33,206 nt of DNA from an uncultured virus (IMG/VR IMGVR_UViG_3300030101_004641) (taxonomy: Duplodnaviria; Heunggongvirae; Uroviricota; Caudoviricetes). Below are positions 1,426 through 22,216 of the stretch, in pieces. Both the position numbers and the translations under genes were made by a program. Position 1 is the first letter of the stretch; the number at the start of each line of letters is the position of its first letter. Under the pieces are notes generated by a model. The model made no database searches, was not told the DNA's origin, and saw only the letters and a program-made list of their open reading frames with translations. The stretch is taken from the IMG/VR virus record IMGVR_UViG_3300030101_004641. One strand, written 5' to 3'.

Positions 1426-1650
1426 ATGACTACTTACAGAATTACTTGTAAAGAGGAAGTCATCTTCGTAAAAGAAGTAGAAGCTAACTCAGAGGATGAA
1501 GCAAGAGAAAAGCTTAATAACGATGTCAATGATTTTAAAACTTTCAAAGAATGGACAGAAGCTTGGGAGATAGCTGATATTGAAGAAAAAGAATCCCATA
1601 AAAAGACATGGGCAAACACATTCCCTACAAGAGGAGTAAGACCAAAATGA
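1426..1650 (+). CDS. hypothetical phage protein
   Basis: Track ORF 1414..1650; likely start 1426 (GGAG SD); Y.I......VEA.SEDEA motif common in small phage proteins. Confidence 0.75.
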   Translation: MTTYRITCKEEVIFVKEVEANSEDEAREKLNNDVNDFKTFKEWTEAWEIADIEEKESHKKTWANTFPTRGVRPK

Positions 1651-1814
1651 AACAAGACAAAAACTTTGAGCCATTAAATGAAACAGAAATGGACTGGCTT
1701 GCACAGCACAGATTCGATCTCTATTACAGCCTTAACGTGGATGAGATGTATCCAAAGGATCAGGAAATCTTTAGGTCAATCAGTGAAAAATTAGAAAAAT
1801 CAGATAAATCATGA
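1647..1814 (+). CDS. hypothetical phage protein
   Basis: Track ORF 1608..1814; start moved to ATGA overlap at 1647 with GAGGAG SD. Confidence 0.7.
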   Translation: MKQDKNFEPLNETEMDWLAQHRFDLYYSLNVDEMYPKDQEIFRSISEKLEKSDKS

Positions 1815-17073: not shown

Positions 17074-18165
17074 TCAACCTATTGCAGGAGCAGATAGAGC
17101 AACTGATGTAGATTCAGCACAAGCTAGATCAAGAGGGAAATTGTGAGCATTTCTCTCATGCATAACTTCAAAACCTAAGTTAGCTCTGTTAAGAACGTCT
17201 GCCCATGTAGGAACGATCTTACCGTTTGTGTCCACGATAGATTGGTTGAAGTTAAAACCATTTAAGTTAAACGCCATTGTGCAGATACCCATTGAAGTTA
17301 GCCATACGCAAACTACAGGGAATACTGCTAAGAAGAAGTGAAGACTTCTGCTGTTGTTAAATGAAGCGTATTGGAAGATTAAACGACCGAAGTAACCATG
17401 AGCTGCAACGATGTTGTATGTTTCTTCTTCCTGTCCGAACTTGTAGCCATAGTTTTGTGACTCAAGACCGGTTGTTTCTCTGATTAGAGATGAAGTTACA
17501 AGTGATCCATGCATAGCAGAGAATAATGCTCCACCGAACATTCCAGCTACACCAGCCATGTGGAATGGGTGCATAAGAATGTTGTGCTCAGCTTGGAATA
17601 CAAACATGAAGTTGAATGTACCAGAAATACCTAAAGGCATTCCGTCAGAGAAAGATCCCTGTCCAAATGGATAAACTAGAAAAACTGCGAAAGCTGCAGA
17701 TACTGGTGCAGAGTATGCAACACAGATCCAAGGACGCATTCCTAATCTGTAACTAAGTTCCCACTGTCGTCCCATGTAAGCTGAGATACCGATGAGGAAG
17801 TGAAAGATGACCAATTGATATGGTCCGCCATTGTATAGCCACTCGTCAACTGTGAGGGCTTCCCATATTGGGTAGAAGTGGAGTCCGATTGCGTTTGAGC
17901 TTGGAACGACTGCTCCTGAGATGATGTTGTTTCCATATAAGAAAGAACCAGCTACTGGTTCACGAATACCGTCTATGTCTACAGGAGGAGCTGCTATGAA
18001 CGCAATTATGAAGCATGTCGCTGCTGTAAGTAGGCAGGGGATCATTAAAACACCAAACCAACCAACATATAGTCTGTTGTCTGTTGATGTTACCCACTCA
18101 CAGAAGGACTGCCAACCGCCTAACAACTCGGAGTTTTTCCGACGCTGTAGAACTGATGATGCCAT
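17074..18165 (-). CDS. psbA: photosystem II reaction centre protein D1
   Basis: Unmistakable D1 sequence ([22 protein letters not shown] [38 protein letters not shown]); no intron. Confidence 0.99.
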
Positions 18166-18296: not shown

Positions 18297-18449
18297 TTAT
18301 ACAGATGTCTTCTCGTCTTTATTTCTGATTTCGTAATGATAAACAGAACCACGATAAACATGAGTATTTCTGCCTGGAACTCTGACTAATTTATCATTGT
18401 CTTTGTCCCTTTTTTGATAGGCAATACCACGATAAGTAAATTTTTTCAT
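18297..18449 (-). CDS. DUF4278-like small protein (50 aa)
   Basis: MKKFTYRGIAY...VYRGSVY..., two YRG..Y repeats; has its own promoter and terminator. Confidence 0.75.
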   Translation of the reverse strand: MKKFTYRGIAYQKRDKDNDKLVRVPGRNTHVYRGSVYHYEIRNKDEKTSV

Positions 18450-18473
18450 AGGTCATACCTTGAAGACACTATT

Positions 18474-18501
18474 ACTATAACATTTTTGTATCAATTGCTA
18501 C
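18474..18501 (-). promoter_or_regulatory. NtcA box next to an extended -10 promoter
   Basis: GTA-GCAATTGA-TAC (18488-18501), 8 bp upstream of the -10 hexamer TATAGT (18474-18479), which is preceded by TGn. Confidence 0.7.
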
Positions 18502-18554
18502 CGTTTATGAAGATACATTAAATATTAAGAAAACATTAAAATATCTTATATGTC

Positions 18555-18593
18555 AAAAAGAATCCCCTCTCTGTTGTTCAGGCAGAAAGGGGA
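18555..18593 (-). terminator. intrinsic terminator closing the candidate ncRNA
   Basis: 11-bp stem 18563-18573/18583-18593 (G-U only on minus), then TTCTTTTT. Confidence 0.7.
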
Positions 18594-18866
18594 AACCAAT
18601 TTTAATTACAAACTAAATTTAGAACCTAGACGTACTAAATTTAATCGCCTGAGTTAACTACTCTCAGTATCACAATTACTAGGAGGTAGCTGTGAATAAA
18701 TACATATTGGCAAGAAAAGTCTAAAAGTAAGACTTTAGTTAACAATATGTAATAAAGAGGAGTCGCACCACCTCTGTTCCTTGGCAATGCGATCGTTTAC
18801 TGGATGTAAGAAACAGTAAAAATTACATCCTCCTCTGGGGCTACCACTGTTCTTCTTCGCCCCTGT
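18555..18866 (-). ncRNA. candidate multi-domain structured RNA (~310 nt, or two RNAs)
   Basis: About ten helices in an ORF-free interval ending in a terminator. Confidence 0.55.
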
Positions 18867-18903
18867 CCTATAATAATATTAATAATTAAATTTACCACCC
18901 CAA

Positions 18904-19134
18904 GTGACAACTGTTTTTAAACCAAAATTGATTGGTAGTGTTGCCGTTGATTCTGGTATTATTTCAGTTATTGATCCTGTTCACATAAAAGTAGATAATG
19001 GTGGCTCAATTAGATTACCTAGTTATAATTTGTATACATCTATAAACACGGAAATTGGCGATGGCGAATACAACATCTACGAATGCAGAGATGACAAAGG
19101 AGGACTTCGAAAAATCATTATTGATATCAACTAA
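18904..19134 (+). CDS. DUF4241-like hypothetical protein
   Basis: IG.V.VDSG.I...DP ... IGDGEY.IY motif; GTG start. Confidence 0.65.
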   Translation: MTTVFKPKLIGSVAVDSGIISVIDPVHIKVDNGGSIRLPSYNLYTSINTEIGDGEYNIYECRDDKGGLRKIIIDIN

Positions 19135-19144
19135 AACAGCTGGG

Positions 19145-19393
19145 ATGGATCCTAGAGAAAATTATCGTCAGTGGTTAAGAAACACATTGCATGCTGTTCT
19201 AGATGATGCGGTTAAAGGAGATGAAAGTGCTAAAAACTTTGTAAGAACTGCAATTAGTAGTTTATGTTTATGGTCAAAAGAAGAAGATATAAAAATTAAT
19301 TTTGATGCTTGGATTTGGCCTTATATTGATCTTTTGGAAGAAGTGAAAAAGAATCAGAGTATCGACACTGCTCCGTGTTCAATAGAGGATTAG
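19145..19393 (+). CDS. hypothetical protein
   Basis: Track ORF 19055..19393; likely start ATG 19145. Confidence 0.65.
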   Translation: MDPRENYRQWLRNTLHAVLDDAVKGDESAKNFVRTAISSLCLWSKEEDIKINFDAWIWPYIDLLEEVKKNQSIDTAPCSIED

Positions 19394-19865
19394 CTGGAGT
19401 TTTACCTAGAACTTCATAGTTTTTCCACACAGGATCATTGGCATGTGGTGGTCTATGCCAAAAAAATATTTTTTTATCATAATCAATAGTCCATTCAGGA
19501 TGATACCTATGCCATCTACTCCAAGCTTTAAATTGTTTCTCTGGATCACCAGATGTGCAGTCTAGGAATATACAATCTCCAGGTTGTATAATCCATCTGA
19601 GTTTCAACACTTCTTCGAAACCTTTCTTAATAGTTTTTAAACCAGATTTCCCTATCATTTTATTTTTTATTGATCTACATCTTTTATTTTTTCTCTTCCA
19701 ATACCAGTCATTTAACTGACGATTTGACTGACCAACGGCAAATCCAACATTCCACACCCAAAATCCTTTTTTAAATTCTGACAATGGTTCAAAAAATATT
19801 TTACATCTTTGACCCTCGACAAAAAATGTAGAGGTAGTAAACTTTCTCCGAATAGACTTTTTCAT
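19296..19865 (-). CDS. hypothetical Trp/Lys-rich protein
   Basis: 189-aa ORF in AT-rich DNA. Confidence 0.7.
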   Translation of the reverse strand: MKKSIRRKFTTSTFFVEGQRCKIFFEPLSEFKKGFWVWNVGFAVGQSNRQLNDWYWKRKNKRCRSIKNKMIGKSGLKTIKKGFEEVLKLRWIIQPGDCIFLDCTSGDPEKQFKAWSRWHRYHPEWTIDYDKKIFFWHRPPHANDPVWKNYEVLGKTPANPLLNTEQCRYSDSFSLLPKDQYKAKSKHQN

Positions 19866-19866
19866 A

Positions 19867-20151
19867 ATGGAAGAATTATTAAAGATGATTCAACAAGATC
19901 CTGAGCTATGGAACATTGTTGAACAATTAAAACATCAAGAACAAGAGCCAGAAGAATTTTTTGAAAGTGTTGCAAACATGTTTGCTGTTGAATTCGAAGA
20001 ATTACATAAAACAGATTTGAAAGATAAACTTTCTGCTCTTTTCGGTGGACTACCAAAAAAAACATACATCATGGTTCCTGCTCTTCTTCATGTAGCACTT
20101 GATATGTTTCTATTAAAGTCAACAATTAATGAAGAGTCAATAAGGGATTAA
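19867..20151 (+). CDS. hypothetical protein
   Basis: 94 aa, upstream of the polymerase. Confidence 0.7.
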   Translation: MEELLKMIQQDPELWNIVEQLKHQEQEPEEFFESVANMFAVEFEELHKTDLKDKLSALFGGLPKKTYIMVPALLHVALDMFLLKSTINEESIRD

Positions 20152-20153
20152 TT

Positions 20154-20381
20154 ATGCAATTTGGATATGTTTTATGTGATCCTAAACGATCAAAAGTTCT
20201 TGTACTTACGAAACAAAACCAAGTAGAATTTATTACAACCAAAAACAAAGATAATATTAATAAAGCTTTTTGTTTAAGAGACATGTCTTCAATAAAATCT
20301 TTATATTATGCACTAAAAGAAAAGAAATTAGTTGACAACCTTGATATAGTGAATATCCAGGAACTTTATAGAAAAACGTAA
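20154..20381 (+). CDS. hypothetical protein
   Basis: 75 aa; TAATG coupling to the polymerase. Confidence 0.7.
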   Translation: MQFGYVLCDPKRSKVLVLTKQNQVEFITTKNKDNINKAFCLRDMSSIKSLYYALKEKKLVDNLDIVNIQELYRKT

Positions 20382-22216
20382 TGTTAAGGTTCGTATTTGA
20401 CTGTGAGACTAATGGTCTTCTCCATGAATTAGATACTGTGCATTCCTTAGTTTTAAGAGATATAGATTCTGGTGATGTCACAAGTTGTTCAGATCATGAT
20501 GGATACGAGCCTGTAGAAAATGGTCTTTATATGCTTTCACAAGCGGATTTACTTGTAGGACATAATATTATAAATTTTGATTTTAGAGCTTTAAAAAAAG
20601 TTTATAAATATTTTAAATTAAAAAAAGATTGCAAAATAAATGATACGTTAATTGTTAGCAGAGTTCTTTCACCTGAAATGGAACCTGTTGATGAATCAAA
20701 GTTTTCACATATACCTTCTAAATATAAAGGAAAACACTCATTAGCTGCTTGGGGTGAGAGATTAAACGTGAAAAAAATAAATTTTGAAGGGGCTGATAAA
20801 TACGAAGAAAGATGGGATATATGGTCAGAAGAAATGCAAAAGTATTGTGAGGGAGATACATTAGTTTCTTTAGAACTTTTTAATTATTTCCAAACTCAAT
20901 TTTTAGATCCAAGATGTTCATGTTTAGAACATGATTTTGCCAGAATAATGGCAAGACAAGAGTCATTTGGTTTTCCTTTCGATGAAAAGAAAGCTTTTGC
21001 ATTAGTCAATAATTTAAAAACAAGAAGAAGAGAGATAGATGACGAATTACAATCTGTATTCCCTCCAATATCAGAAGAAAGATTTTCTGAAAAAACAGGT
21101 AAAAAATTAAAAACAAAAGTCACACAATTCAATCCAGCATCTAGAAAACAAACTTATGAAAGATTAAAAGCTAAATATCCTGAAATAAGATTTGCTCATA
21201 CTCAAAAGGGTAACGTCAAATTAGATGATGATGTATTAGACAAGTTAGGTAAAAAATATCCTGAAGCTAAATTATTATCTGAATATCAAATGTTAAATAA
21301 AAGATTAGGTCAAATATCGGAAGGCAAGGAGGCTTGGCTAAAGCATAGTCAAAAATATGGTGATGGACGTATTCATGGATCAGTTATTACAAATGCTTGC
21401 GTGTCTGGAAGAGCATCTCATCGGGGTCCAAATGTAGCCCAAATTCCGAGAGTGGGTCAACCATATGGTGCAGAGTGTAGATCTTTATTTTATGCCCCTC
21501 ATGGATGGAGACAAGTTGGGTGTGATGCATCTGGTCTTGAGTTAAGAGGACTTGGTGCTCAACTTGCTTATTTTGATGATGGAGAATATGCAAAATTAGT
21601 TAGTATGCCAGGTTTCGATATTCATACTCATAATGCCAAATTGTTTGGAATATATGATGGTCAAGGAAAAATAGAAAAACGGATAAGAGAACAAGCAAAA
21701 ACACTAATTTACGCAGTTCTGTATGGGGCTGGGGCACAAAAATTAGGTACTATTCTTAATCCAAGTTTAGGACAACATGATCAACAAGATTTAGGAAGAG
21801 AAACAATTGACACGTTTTATAAAAATTTACCAGCGATTAAAAAATTAAAAGATAAAGTTGATGAACGAGTAACAAAAAGAGGTTACTTAATTGGTATAGA
21901 TGGTAGGCATTTACAAATTAGATCAAGACATTCAGCTTTAAATCAATTGTTACAGTCAACTGGAAGTCTATGTGTAAAAAAAGCAACGTGTATTCTCTAT
22001 GAGGATTGTAAGAATAATCATTTAAGATGGGGAATCCATTATGCATTCGTGGCACATATCCATGATGAGATACAAGCCTTAGTAAAACCTCAACATGTTA
22101 GCCTCTACAGTAAACTCGCAGTGGATTGTTTTCGAAAATCAGGAGAGTATTTTAAATTACGATGCCCTTTGACAGGGGAAGTAAATGAAGGAAAAAACTG
22201 GATGGAGACACATTAA
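20381..22216 (+). CDS. polA: family A DNA polymerase, T7-like, with 3'-5' exonuclease
   Basis: ExoI FDCETNGL, ExoII GHNIINFD, ExoIII YCEGD; motif A DASGLELR, motif B REQAKTLIYAVLYG, motif C HIHDEIQ. Confidence 0.95.
   Translation: MLRFVFDCETNGLLHELDTVHSLVLRDIDSGDVTSCSDHDGYEPVENGLYMLSQADLLVGHNIINFDFRALKKVYKYFKLKKDCKINDTLIVSRVLSPEMEPVDESKFSHIPSKYKGKHSLAAWGERLNVKKINFEGADKYEERWDIWSEEMQKYCEGDTLVSLELFNYFQTQFLDPRCSCLEHDFARIMARQESFGFPFDEKKAFALVNNLKTRRREIDDELQSVFPPISEERFSEKTGKKLKTKVTQFNPASRKQTYERLKAKYPEIRFAHTQKGNVKLDDDVLDKLGKKYPEAKLLSEYQMLNKRLGQISEGKEAWLKHSQKYGDGRIHGSVITNACVSGRASHRGPNVAQIPRVGQPYGAECRSLFYAPHGWRQVGCDASGLELRGLGAQLAYFDDGEYAKLVSMPGFDIHTHNAKLFGIYDGQGKIEKRIREQAKTLIYAVLYGAGAQKLGTILNPSLGQHDQQDLGRETIDTFYKNLPAIKKLKDKVDERVTKRGYLIGIDGRHLQIRSRHSALNQLLQSTGSLCVKKATCILYEDCKNNHLRWGIHYAFVAHIHDEIQALVKPQHVSLYSKLAVDCFRKSGEYFKLRCPLTGEVNEGKNWMETH

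Follow-up and report, generated by a model that had tools for sequence, protein, structure and literature searches.

Few phage-encoded structured RNAs have known functions. According to passages of PMC2864571 and PMC9602691, PhotoRC-II is a structured RNA of marine cyanophages and metagenomes that lies upstream of psbA, and parts of PMC6212724 describe DUF4278 proteins as IF17-like glutamine-synthetase inactivating factors, the cyanobacterial ones typically being preceded by glutamine riboswitches. Here we examine a 33,206-nt stretch of DNA, referred to throughout as the window, from an uncultured virus of the Caudoviricetes (IMG/VR record IMGVR_UViG_3300030101_004641), in which a DUF4278-like open reading frame (ORF) and psbA follow a gene-free spacer that had been singled out from its letters alone, in what we call the original prediction, as the seat of a riboswitch- or ribozyme-like module. 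We find that window positions 18756-18863, on the minus strand, are a structured RNA of 108 nt, a strongly conserved non-coding core in which a hairpin at the 5' end (P1) precedes a three-way junction formed by P2, which closes helices P3 and P4. Judged by the Rfam 15 models, the RNA is an undescribed family apart from the known ones, and we consider it, with slightly better than even confidence, to be a stand-alone, trans-acting structured small RNA rather than a riboswitch.

The fold is established by comparison of homologues. The 76-aa ORF next to the RNA was used to retrieve six IMG/VR loci, in whose alignment the stretch at ~18753-18875 is near-invariant while the flanks diverge, being replaced outright in two loci, and the changes that do occur within helices are compensatory; a more distant copy (L008) carries compensatory changes in four helices, P4 included. 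Using the sequences of the two loops closed by P1 and P3 (L1 and L3) as a search pattern, 16 viral contigs and at least 117 metagenome contigs were matched, and the exact pattern had no match in 185,579 prokaryotic species genomes. This first set yielded 112 distinct cores; 108 of 111 usable ones were aligned, with three variant architectures (L068, L114 and L142) omitted, and of the 25 pairs that RNAalifold predicted, 18 show compensatory changes. We then built a covariance model, R1, with 29 pairs and without encoding any loop-loop helix, and re-aligned 100 sources with it after removal of 11 near-duplicates. R1 finds a single strong match per source (42.8-138.4 bits) and one marginal extra match overall. 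In L035, a second match (1566-1684, minus strand; 14.8 bits, E 0.076) ~450 nt from the true copy is probably due to chance. In the R1 alignment standard pairs fill 97.7% of 2913 pair cells, as compared to 81.8% in column shuffles (none of 500 reaching the observed value) and 46-52% with slid partners, and both-sided changes are present at 24 of the 29 pairs.

As the loops formed the search pattern, their invariance in the first set carries no information. A second, unbiased set of 80 viral loci was fetched by the upstream 189-aa protein alone (14 homologues aligned), and R1 locates the RNA at 69 of them (42-133 bits), always downstream of the protein gene and on its strand; the other 11 have a shorter, T7-like-phage type of the protein. 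Across the 57 distinct sequences of this gene-anchored set, L1 and L3 vary together (GAACAGU/ACUGUUU, CAAU/AUUG, CAGC/GCUG, CCAU/AUGG, CUAC/GUAG and GAGCGAU/AUCGCUU), with individual positions occupied, for example, by C-G in 29 and U-A in 27 sequences, by G-C in 37 and A-U in 16, or by A-U in 41, C-G in 8 and G-C in 5. The resulting loop-loop helix, 7-8 bp long and absent from R1, is paired in 98.9% of cells over eight pairs, five of which show compensatory changes, and the L1/L3 duplex has a mean energy of -8.2 kcal/mol versus -4.4 for shuffled loops. With this helix counted in, pairing across the whole structure reaches 96.6% of cells, and compensatory changes affect 32 of 37 pairs. The covariation would be equally compatible with L1-L3 pairing within one molecule or between molecules. 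An independent pattern derived from the P4 loop (L4) led to true copies in 4 of 33 loci, each on already-known contigs, and the family so far comprises 146 distinct sequences, in which covariation is seen in four helices as well as in the loop-loop helix.

Every complementary segment listed in the original prediction could be found in place, and three of its helices, which in plus-strand letters are GGGGC 18837-18841 with GCCCC 18859-18863, GGATGTAA 18802-18809 with TTACATCC 18823-18830, and AGAGGAG 18756-18762 with CTCCTCT 18830-18836, correspond to P1, P3 and P2, respectively, and covary strongly. Its further proposal of mutually exclusive folds does not survive the comparison: the interleaved helix TTTACTG 18796-18802/CAGTAAA 18814-18820 retains all seven pairs in just 35 of 100 homologues and the local pairing of AGAGGAG with CCTCT 18771-18775 all five in just 29, and neither alternative is kept as the true helices are. 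The proposed structured domain is a genuine RNA and a pseudoknot-type interaction is indeed seen in the covarying L1-L3 loop helix, but not in the interleaved helix originally put forward, which is not conserved. Similarly, the minus-strand GGUGCGACUCC, which had been likened to a tRNA T-arm, is the fully paired 3' strand of P4 plus P2 and covaries (e.g. GGUGGGGUUACCCC in L008), and neither ARAGORN (no tRNA genes) nor Rfam detects a tRNA in the window. P4 and the L1-L3 loop helix were not part of the original prediction, both being found here by covariation (Table 1).

Table 1. Coordinates of the RNA, its predicted transcription signals and neighbouring features in the window.
Feature	Position	Sequence	Strand	Evidence or remark
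Core (P1 + P2/P3/P4 junction)	18756..18863		-	covariance model R1, 138.4 bits
P1	18863-18859 / 18841-18837	GGGGC / GCCCC	-	compensatory changes at 5/5 pairs
L1, 17 nt, closed by P1	18858-18842	GAAGAAGAACAGUGGUA	-	
Loop-loop helix, L1 side	18852-18845	GAACAGUG	-	partner: L3 18818-18811
P2	18836-18831 / 18761-18756	AGAGGA / UCCUCU	-	compensatory, e.g. AAGGGG/CCCUUU, GGGGGG/UCCCCU
P3	18830-18823 / 18809-18802	GGAUGUAA / UUACAUCC	-	8/8 pairs compensatory; 99% of cells paired
L3, 13 nt, closed by P3	18822-18810	UUUUUACUGUUUC	-	
Loop-loop helix, L3 side	18818-18811	UACUGUUU	-	partner: L1 18852-18845
J3/4	18801-18793	AGUAAACGA	-	consensus ~RGNRA-NYG-A in the family; unpaired in consensus; variants exist
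P4	18792-18783 / 18772-18763	UCGCAUUGCC / GGUGGUGCGA	-	10/10 pairs compensatory (wide, gene-anchored set)
L4, closed by P4	18782-18773	AAGGAACAGA	-	
P4-to-P2 junction base	18762	C	-	
-10-type box	18875-18870	TATTAT	-	TANNNT conserved before P1
Variable 3' extension with further hairpins	18593..18755		-	spacer fold; window's clade only
Intrinsic terminator	18592-18553	CCCCUUUCUG-loop-CAGAGAGGGG, then AUUCUUUUUG	-	sequence and spacer fold
Promoter-like block	18540-18450		-	conserved where DUF4278 is close
First GTA-N8-(A/T)AC box	18516-18503	GTATCTTCATAAAC	-	
Second GTA-N8-(A/T)AC box	18501-18488	GTAGCAATTGATAC	-	
TATAGT-type -10 of the block	18479-18474		-	8 bp past the second box
DUF4278 ORF, 50 aa	18297-18449		-	Pfam E 9e-4, below the curated cut-off
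psbA	17074-18165		-	93-94% identical to Prochlorococcus psbA
10-codon mini-ORF, GTG start	18692-18724		+	with Shine-Dalgarno, 18678-18724
TATAAT	18869-18874	TATAAT	+	ahead of the 76-aa ORF
76-aa ORF	18904-19134		+	
189-aa gene (phrog_38455)	19296-19865		-	
94-aa ORF	19867-20151		+	
Family-A DNA polymerase gene	20381-22216			

Thermodynamic stability points in the same direction, as a 121-nt stretch is more stably folded than its dinucleotide shuffles (z -2.98 on the plus and -2.62 on the minus strand) and the 456-nt gene-free spacer at 18450-18905 also beats its shuffles (z -3.9, -4.5); the real proof of the fold is nevertheless the comparative evidence and not these z-scores. The linker between P1 and P2 is 0-3 nt long in many clades and 6-10 nt in others. 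In the window's clade, an L4 heptamer of the form G-R-R-R-Y-R-G is complementary to the L3 sequence CUGUUUC in 96 of 100 copies and changes along with L3 in the L280 type, which could reflect a clade-specific, local alternative contact; since L4 is unrelated across the wider family, we do not count L3-L4 pairing as a family feature.

The strand is set by wobble pairs. In P4 there is a conserved series of pairs, U-G, U-G and G-U (the U-G type in 94 and the G-U type in 85 of 101 rows of the first set), and the one-sided changes are all A-C on the plus strand, equivalent to G-U on the minus strand. Read from the plus strand, the conserved G-U pairs would turn into A-C mismatches, so the RNA belongs to the minus strand. 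The stretch is non-coding, each of the six frames being interrupted by a stop in 53-93% of the 146 distinct copies. Ahead of P1, a TANNNT hexamer (mostly TATTAT) begins 16-10 nt upstream in all 57 distinct copies of the gene-anchored set and can be seen in almost every one of the first set's 115 upstream sequences, and it is kept whether the DNA ahead of it belongs to the divergent 76-aa gene or to a co-directional ORF that ends there. These sequences suggest that the RNA has its own promoter just upstream of P1, from which transcription would start at the base that opens P1, G18863. Some 8-12 nt upstream of the -10 box, many clades have a semi-conserved GCAYAT-like element, e.g. AAGCACATAG-N5-TATTATA, which is possibly a lineage-specific promoter element and occupies a place where no -35 box would be expected.

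The fold stands at the 5' end of a ~310-nt ORF-free stretch ahead of the boxed DUF4278 gene and of psbA, as the original prediction had it; the stretch closes with an intrinsic terminator, and the transcript of the window is likely to be ~310 nt long with its 3' end at this terminator. The 3' extension between fold and terminator is absent in compact relatives; L002, L003 and L008 lack it or have other sequence in its place. The same terminator hairpin was found by scanning 12 to ~130 nt past the fold in 16 relatives; it abuts the fold in L003, a terminator also comes directly after the fold in L063 and L117, and in relatives with such an arrangement the RNA would be ~150 nt. A hairpin followed by a U-run was also read by eye after the fold in L322 and L320. 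The hairpin CCCCUYUYUG...CAGAGAGGGG is met again between differing flanks, both among relatives and among RNA-library contigs, as might be the case for a terminator module that is shared or mobile. On the opposite strand, antisense to the 3' extension, a strong Shine-Dalgarno sequence (AGGAGG) precedes a short mini-ORF, which is conserved in L001 and L006.

That the element is undescribed, as the original prediction proposed, is borne out by the Rfam 15 search, which returned no family at the gathering threshold in the window and none at the motif in 40 relatives' loci; with the cut-off relaxed to E<=10, the eight matches listed for 18400-19000 are all at chance level and outside the fold. We found no description of the RNA in the literature on PhotoRC-II, DUF4278 and cyanophage psbA non-coding or small RNAs. 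A 2023 catalogue of 8,495 unnamed IMG/VR RNA candidates (PMC10690425) may contain it; the loop motifs are not found in four of its supplementary files, a check that covers these motifs and not the catalogue's alignments and models.

The carriers are a lineage of uncultured ocean and aquatic phages of about 60-85 kb, with one copy of the RNA per phage record in all five records of 57-82 kb (CheckV completeness 70-96%). Searches outside this lineage were negative: blastn of spacer and core against 50,697 isolate phage records gave no match or matches at chance (E>=1), and R1 had no match in 80 cyanobacterial psbA loci or in 156 picocyanobacterial genomes, namely five whole genomes and 151 from the family to which G002 belongs (the genome with locus L204, entitled Prochlorococcus marinus MIT 9302), while the same genome search recovered the RNA in the five phage records used as positive control.

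Within the phage-like window, the RNA sits inside a replication module encoding the family-A DNA polymerase, a primase, SSB (the protein that binds single-stranded DNA) and an exonuclease. Read along the RNA strand, the usual order in the lineage is the 189-aa gene, the 76-aa gene on the other strand (present in about two thirds of loci), the RNA, the DUF4278 ORF and psbA, with the phage DUF4278 ORF just upstream of psbA conserved across the lineage. Between the fold and the DUF4278 start codon lies a promoter-like block, also found in relatives (e.g. L008, L015 and L304), in which a TCTTAA(C) direct repeat with ~11 bp spacing and two GTA-N8-(A/T)AC boxes are followed by a TATAGT-type -10 and then a ~20-nt leader with a Shine-Dalgarno sequence. 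The predicted positions of the boxes are about -27 for the second and about -42 for the first. In cyanobacteria, the sites from which NtcA represses gif genes overlap their promoters, and the block's TTAA repeats resemble cyanobacterial Pho boxes.

Other structured RNAs share this spacer in relatives. A Glutamine-II riboswitch directly precedes DUF4278 in 8 of the 40 relatives' loci, comprising 7 of 20 and, in addition, L100 (L003, L045, L065, L074, L094, L095, L100 and L104), and relatives with it retain the new RNA 400-900 nt upstream of the DUF4278 start. A manA RNA occurs 50-200 nt downstream of the new RNA in 6 of 20 relatives (L095 1733-1924, L065 1675-1866, L040, L044, L058 and L104), and the Rfam scan finds neither manA nor Glutamine-II in the window itself. 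The presence of manA and Glutamine-II between the new RNA and psbA marks the spacer as a hotspot of independent structured RNA modules. Furthermore, a variant copy at 1489-1682 of L068, with a UUCG tetraloop instead of the P4 loop and a weak P2, is directly followed by a tRNA gene and then by a transaldolase-like ORF (its N-terminus read by eye), and the RNA thus also occurs outside the psbA context.

We favour a stand-alone RNA because the -10 box is conserved in all contexts, because DUF4278 has a promoter block of its own and, in relatives, its own riboswitch, and because of what lies downstream. In a census of 111 distinct copies, each with 450 nt or more of sequence past the RNA, 29 have no DUF4278-like ORF within the available flank, and in 12 of 16 inspected loci lacking a nearby DUF4278 (L322, L282, L293, L296, L307, L315, L344, L320, L331, L337, L283 and L318) all listed ORFs beyond the RNA are on the opposite strand, that is, convergent with it. 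The other four inspected loci comprise L304 and L312, which have a DUF4278-like ORF missed by the first pattern, L295, with a co-directional 202-aa ORF ~30 nt past the RNA, and L291, with a short co-directional ORF only. In five further loci (L063, L071, L035, L064 and L042) opposite-strand genes come directly after the RNA, and in L063, L071 and L035 the DUF4278 ORF is reached only beyond them. Under this reading, transcription from the TATTAT -10 box would start at the first G of P1, the L1-L3 helix would lock a compact shape, and this shape would present the invariant single-stranded purines of L1 (GAAGAA), the U-run of L3 and J3/4 to a protein or RNA partner. The RNA would then act in trans, independently of the genes downstream, and would not be a metabolite-sensing leader of DUF4278 and psbA, which would be served by their own boxed promoter.

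Several observations weigh against a stand-alone RNA. The -35 region shows no conservation in the upstream sequences of the first set, and a look through the rest of the window for complements of L1 and L3, as possible targets or partners, turned them up only at chance frequency. Metatranscriptome contigs from four runs in four studies hold relatives of the core, a type of evidence that cannot show strand, ends or RNA origin, and one such contig extends 37 nt upstream of the inferred start. A strict scan detects a terminator-like hairpin within ~160 nt of the fold in just 25 of 143 distinct copies, meaning that most compact copies, having no terminator between RNA and gene, would transcribe on into DUF4278-psbA. 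Finally, a same-strand DUF4278-like ORF follows the RNA in 82 of the 111 copies of the census (61 within 150 nt and 21 further), an adjacency that recurs in divergent clades without psbA; it fits a cis-regulator, and conserved gene order in one phage lineage explains it as well. The corresponding alternative, which the original prediction had preferred, is a cis-regulatory leader or riboswitch whose fold would be an aptamer controlling DUF4278/psbA read-through or translation through a metabolite of nitrogen status, for instance glutamine or 2-oxoglutarate, and we regard it as unlikely. The three-way junction resembles an aptamer in its conserved bases and tertiary loop contact, cyanobacterial DUF4278 genes have the riboswitch association already mentioned, and in L003 the 3' strand of P2 (CUCCUCU) might base-pair with the adjoining terminator's 3' arm. 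This alternative is nonetheless weakened by the RNA's own -10 box, by the conserved promoter-like block and short leader that separate the fold from the start codon, by the true Glutamine-II that sits beside the DUF4278 start in relatives while the new RNA is still kept far upstream, and by the copies with no DUF4278, with exclusively convergent neighbours or with opposite-strand genes in between; nor is there a conserved expression platform, terminator or anti-Shine-Dalgarno sequence after P2.

The ambiguity between intra- and intermolecular pairing that is inherent in the covariation leaves room for a self-assembling RNA, in which L1 and L3 of different molecules would join head to tail into rings, chains or filaments, as the packaging RNA (pRNA) of phi29 does on the portal and as has been reported for some large RNAs associated with phages, to provide a scaffold for replication, packaging or some other phage process. 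On this view cyanophages would possess an equivalent of phi29 pRNA or of RNA-only particles that assemble themselves. By rough geometry, a P1-P2 linker of 0-3 nt would make a coaxial intramolecular kissing complex awkward, and the single copy, predicted promoter, three-way junction and two covarying loops would be pRNA-like (for pRNA, PMC4201828); a compact intramolecular fold with a sharp turn would be compatible with the same data, the replication genes are a family-A polymerase and primase and not phi29-type machinery, and there is no Rfam match, the phage pRNA family included, with a topology that differs in having a hairpin at the 5' end. We therefore judge self-assembly improbable; if true, this multimeric scaffold for a replication-module machine would be without precedent among phages that infect the ocean's dominant phototrophs. 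Still less probable, in our estimate, is a catalytic or processing element, whether a self-cleaving ribozyme, an RNase substrate separating upstream transcripts from the psbA cassette, or a replication primer RNA. The complex fold with invariant unpaired bases and the location inside the replication module would suit such a role, and the tRNA directly after the RNA in L068 would give RNase P processing there, but no Rfam 15 ribozyme family matches, the junction is presumably unlike the hammerhead core, and a cleavage site cannot be inferred. GC skew was tried as a mark of an origin and rejected, as it follows gene orientation only. A DNA-level element with helix-like inverted repeats (a divergent promoter region, an operator array or an origin) is very nearly dismissed: the locus does lie between divergent genes in the window, with a plus-strand TATAAT before the 76-aa ORF, but pairing is kept through G-U on one strand only, the compensatory pairs include the loop-loop helix, and the RNA persists where the 76-aa ORF is absent.

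Among the neighbouring genes, the 189-aa gene is the best genomic marker of the RNA, given the 69 of 80 loci in which both occur. It is the sole minus-strand gene within a plus-strand replication operon, starts 1 nt from the divergent 94-aa ORF and overlaps with its 3' end a 112-aa plus-strand ORF. No Pfam family was found for the protein; its AlphaFold model (pLDDT 83) has only weak structural matches, by Foldseek at E>=0.013 and by VIA at Z<=6.3 to an RNase E subdomain and GNAT acetyltransferases, and since these fall below the tool's caution line we assign it no function. Its isolate homologues belong to the tail/core module of T7-like cyanopodoviruses, without the RNA.

Overall, the RNA constitutes a new and well-supported family carried by abundant uncultured marine and aquatic phages, some with near-identical Prochlorococcus psbA. 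As DUF4278 marks IF17-like factors, the phage may interfere with host nitrogen assimilation, and the spacer can be seen as an "RNA island" (in relatives with manA, Glutamine-II, an IF17-like gene and psbA) that connects how the phage controls nitrogen status with how it controls photosynthesis in the host. The R1 covariance model is usable for annotating the lineage in ocean metagenomes, and a compact RNA of ~108 nt with near-invariant loops is directly testable.

Among known RNAs, PhotoRC-II resembles the new family in being a structured RNA of marine phages upstream of psbA. The PhotoRC-II model (RF01717, gathering 39 bits) was rejected as a candidate, having no match in the window or the 40 relatives' loci; as a positive control, it scored 44-64 bits directly before psbA in 4 of 5 cyanomyovirus-type loci (P-HM1, S-SSM7 and the single-cell viral contigs AG-345-P14 and AG-345-E02), and R1 in turn has no match in these five control loci. 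The arrangement differs as well: PhotoRC-II abuts psbA, whereas the new RNA lies at least 690 nt upstream with DUF4278 between (in the window, psbA starts 691 nt past the L1 loop, beyond DUF4278 and two hairpins) and is also found in phages without a nearby psbA. manA (RF01745), which parts of PMC2864571 present as a marine and cyanophage structured RNA before photosynthesis genes with no ligand described, shares the spacer with the new RNA in some relatives, but it is a separate 192-nt family. With the glnA and Glutamine-II riboswitches, as treated in sections of PMC6212724, the RNA shares its frequent position upstream of a DUF4278 gene; unlike them, it matches no glutamine riboswitch model, has its own predicted promoter and no conserved expression platform, and co-occurs with real Glutamine-II. 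Purine-class aptamers likewise have a three-way junction with conserved bases, in which two hairpin arms rise from a closing helix and loops make a tertiary contact, whereas the contact in the new RNA joins an extra 5' hairpin and P3 and not two junction arms. ROOL and GOLLD are phage- or prophage-borne, highly structured RNAs, sometimes beside tRNA genes, that are reported to multimerise via loop contacts; they are several-fold larger and neither matches, while the L068 copy likewise stands beside a tRNA. There is also a likeness to phi29 pRNA (PMC4201828), a phage-encoded RNA present in one copy, which is ~120-170 nt long, is transcribed from a promoter of its own and folds around a three-way junction with a pair of complementary loops that covary. 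The new RNA has this same combination of junction and covarying loops, but it carries one of these loops on a 5' hairpin, so that its 5' end is not part of the closing helix as in pRNA, and its phage encodes a family-A polymerase, primase, SSB and exonuclease in place of phi29-type replication machinery. The loop helix of pRNA is ~4 bp long, as against 7-8 bp in the new RNA.

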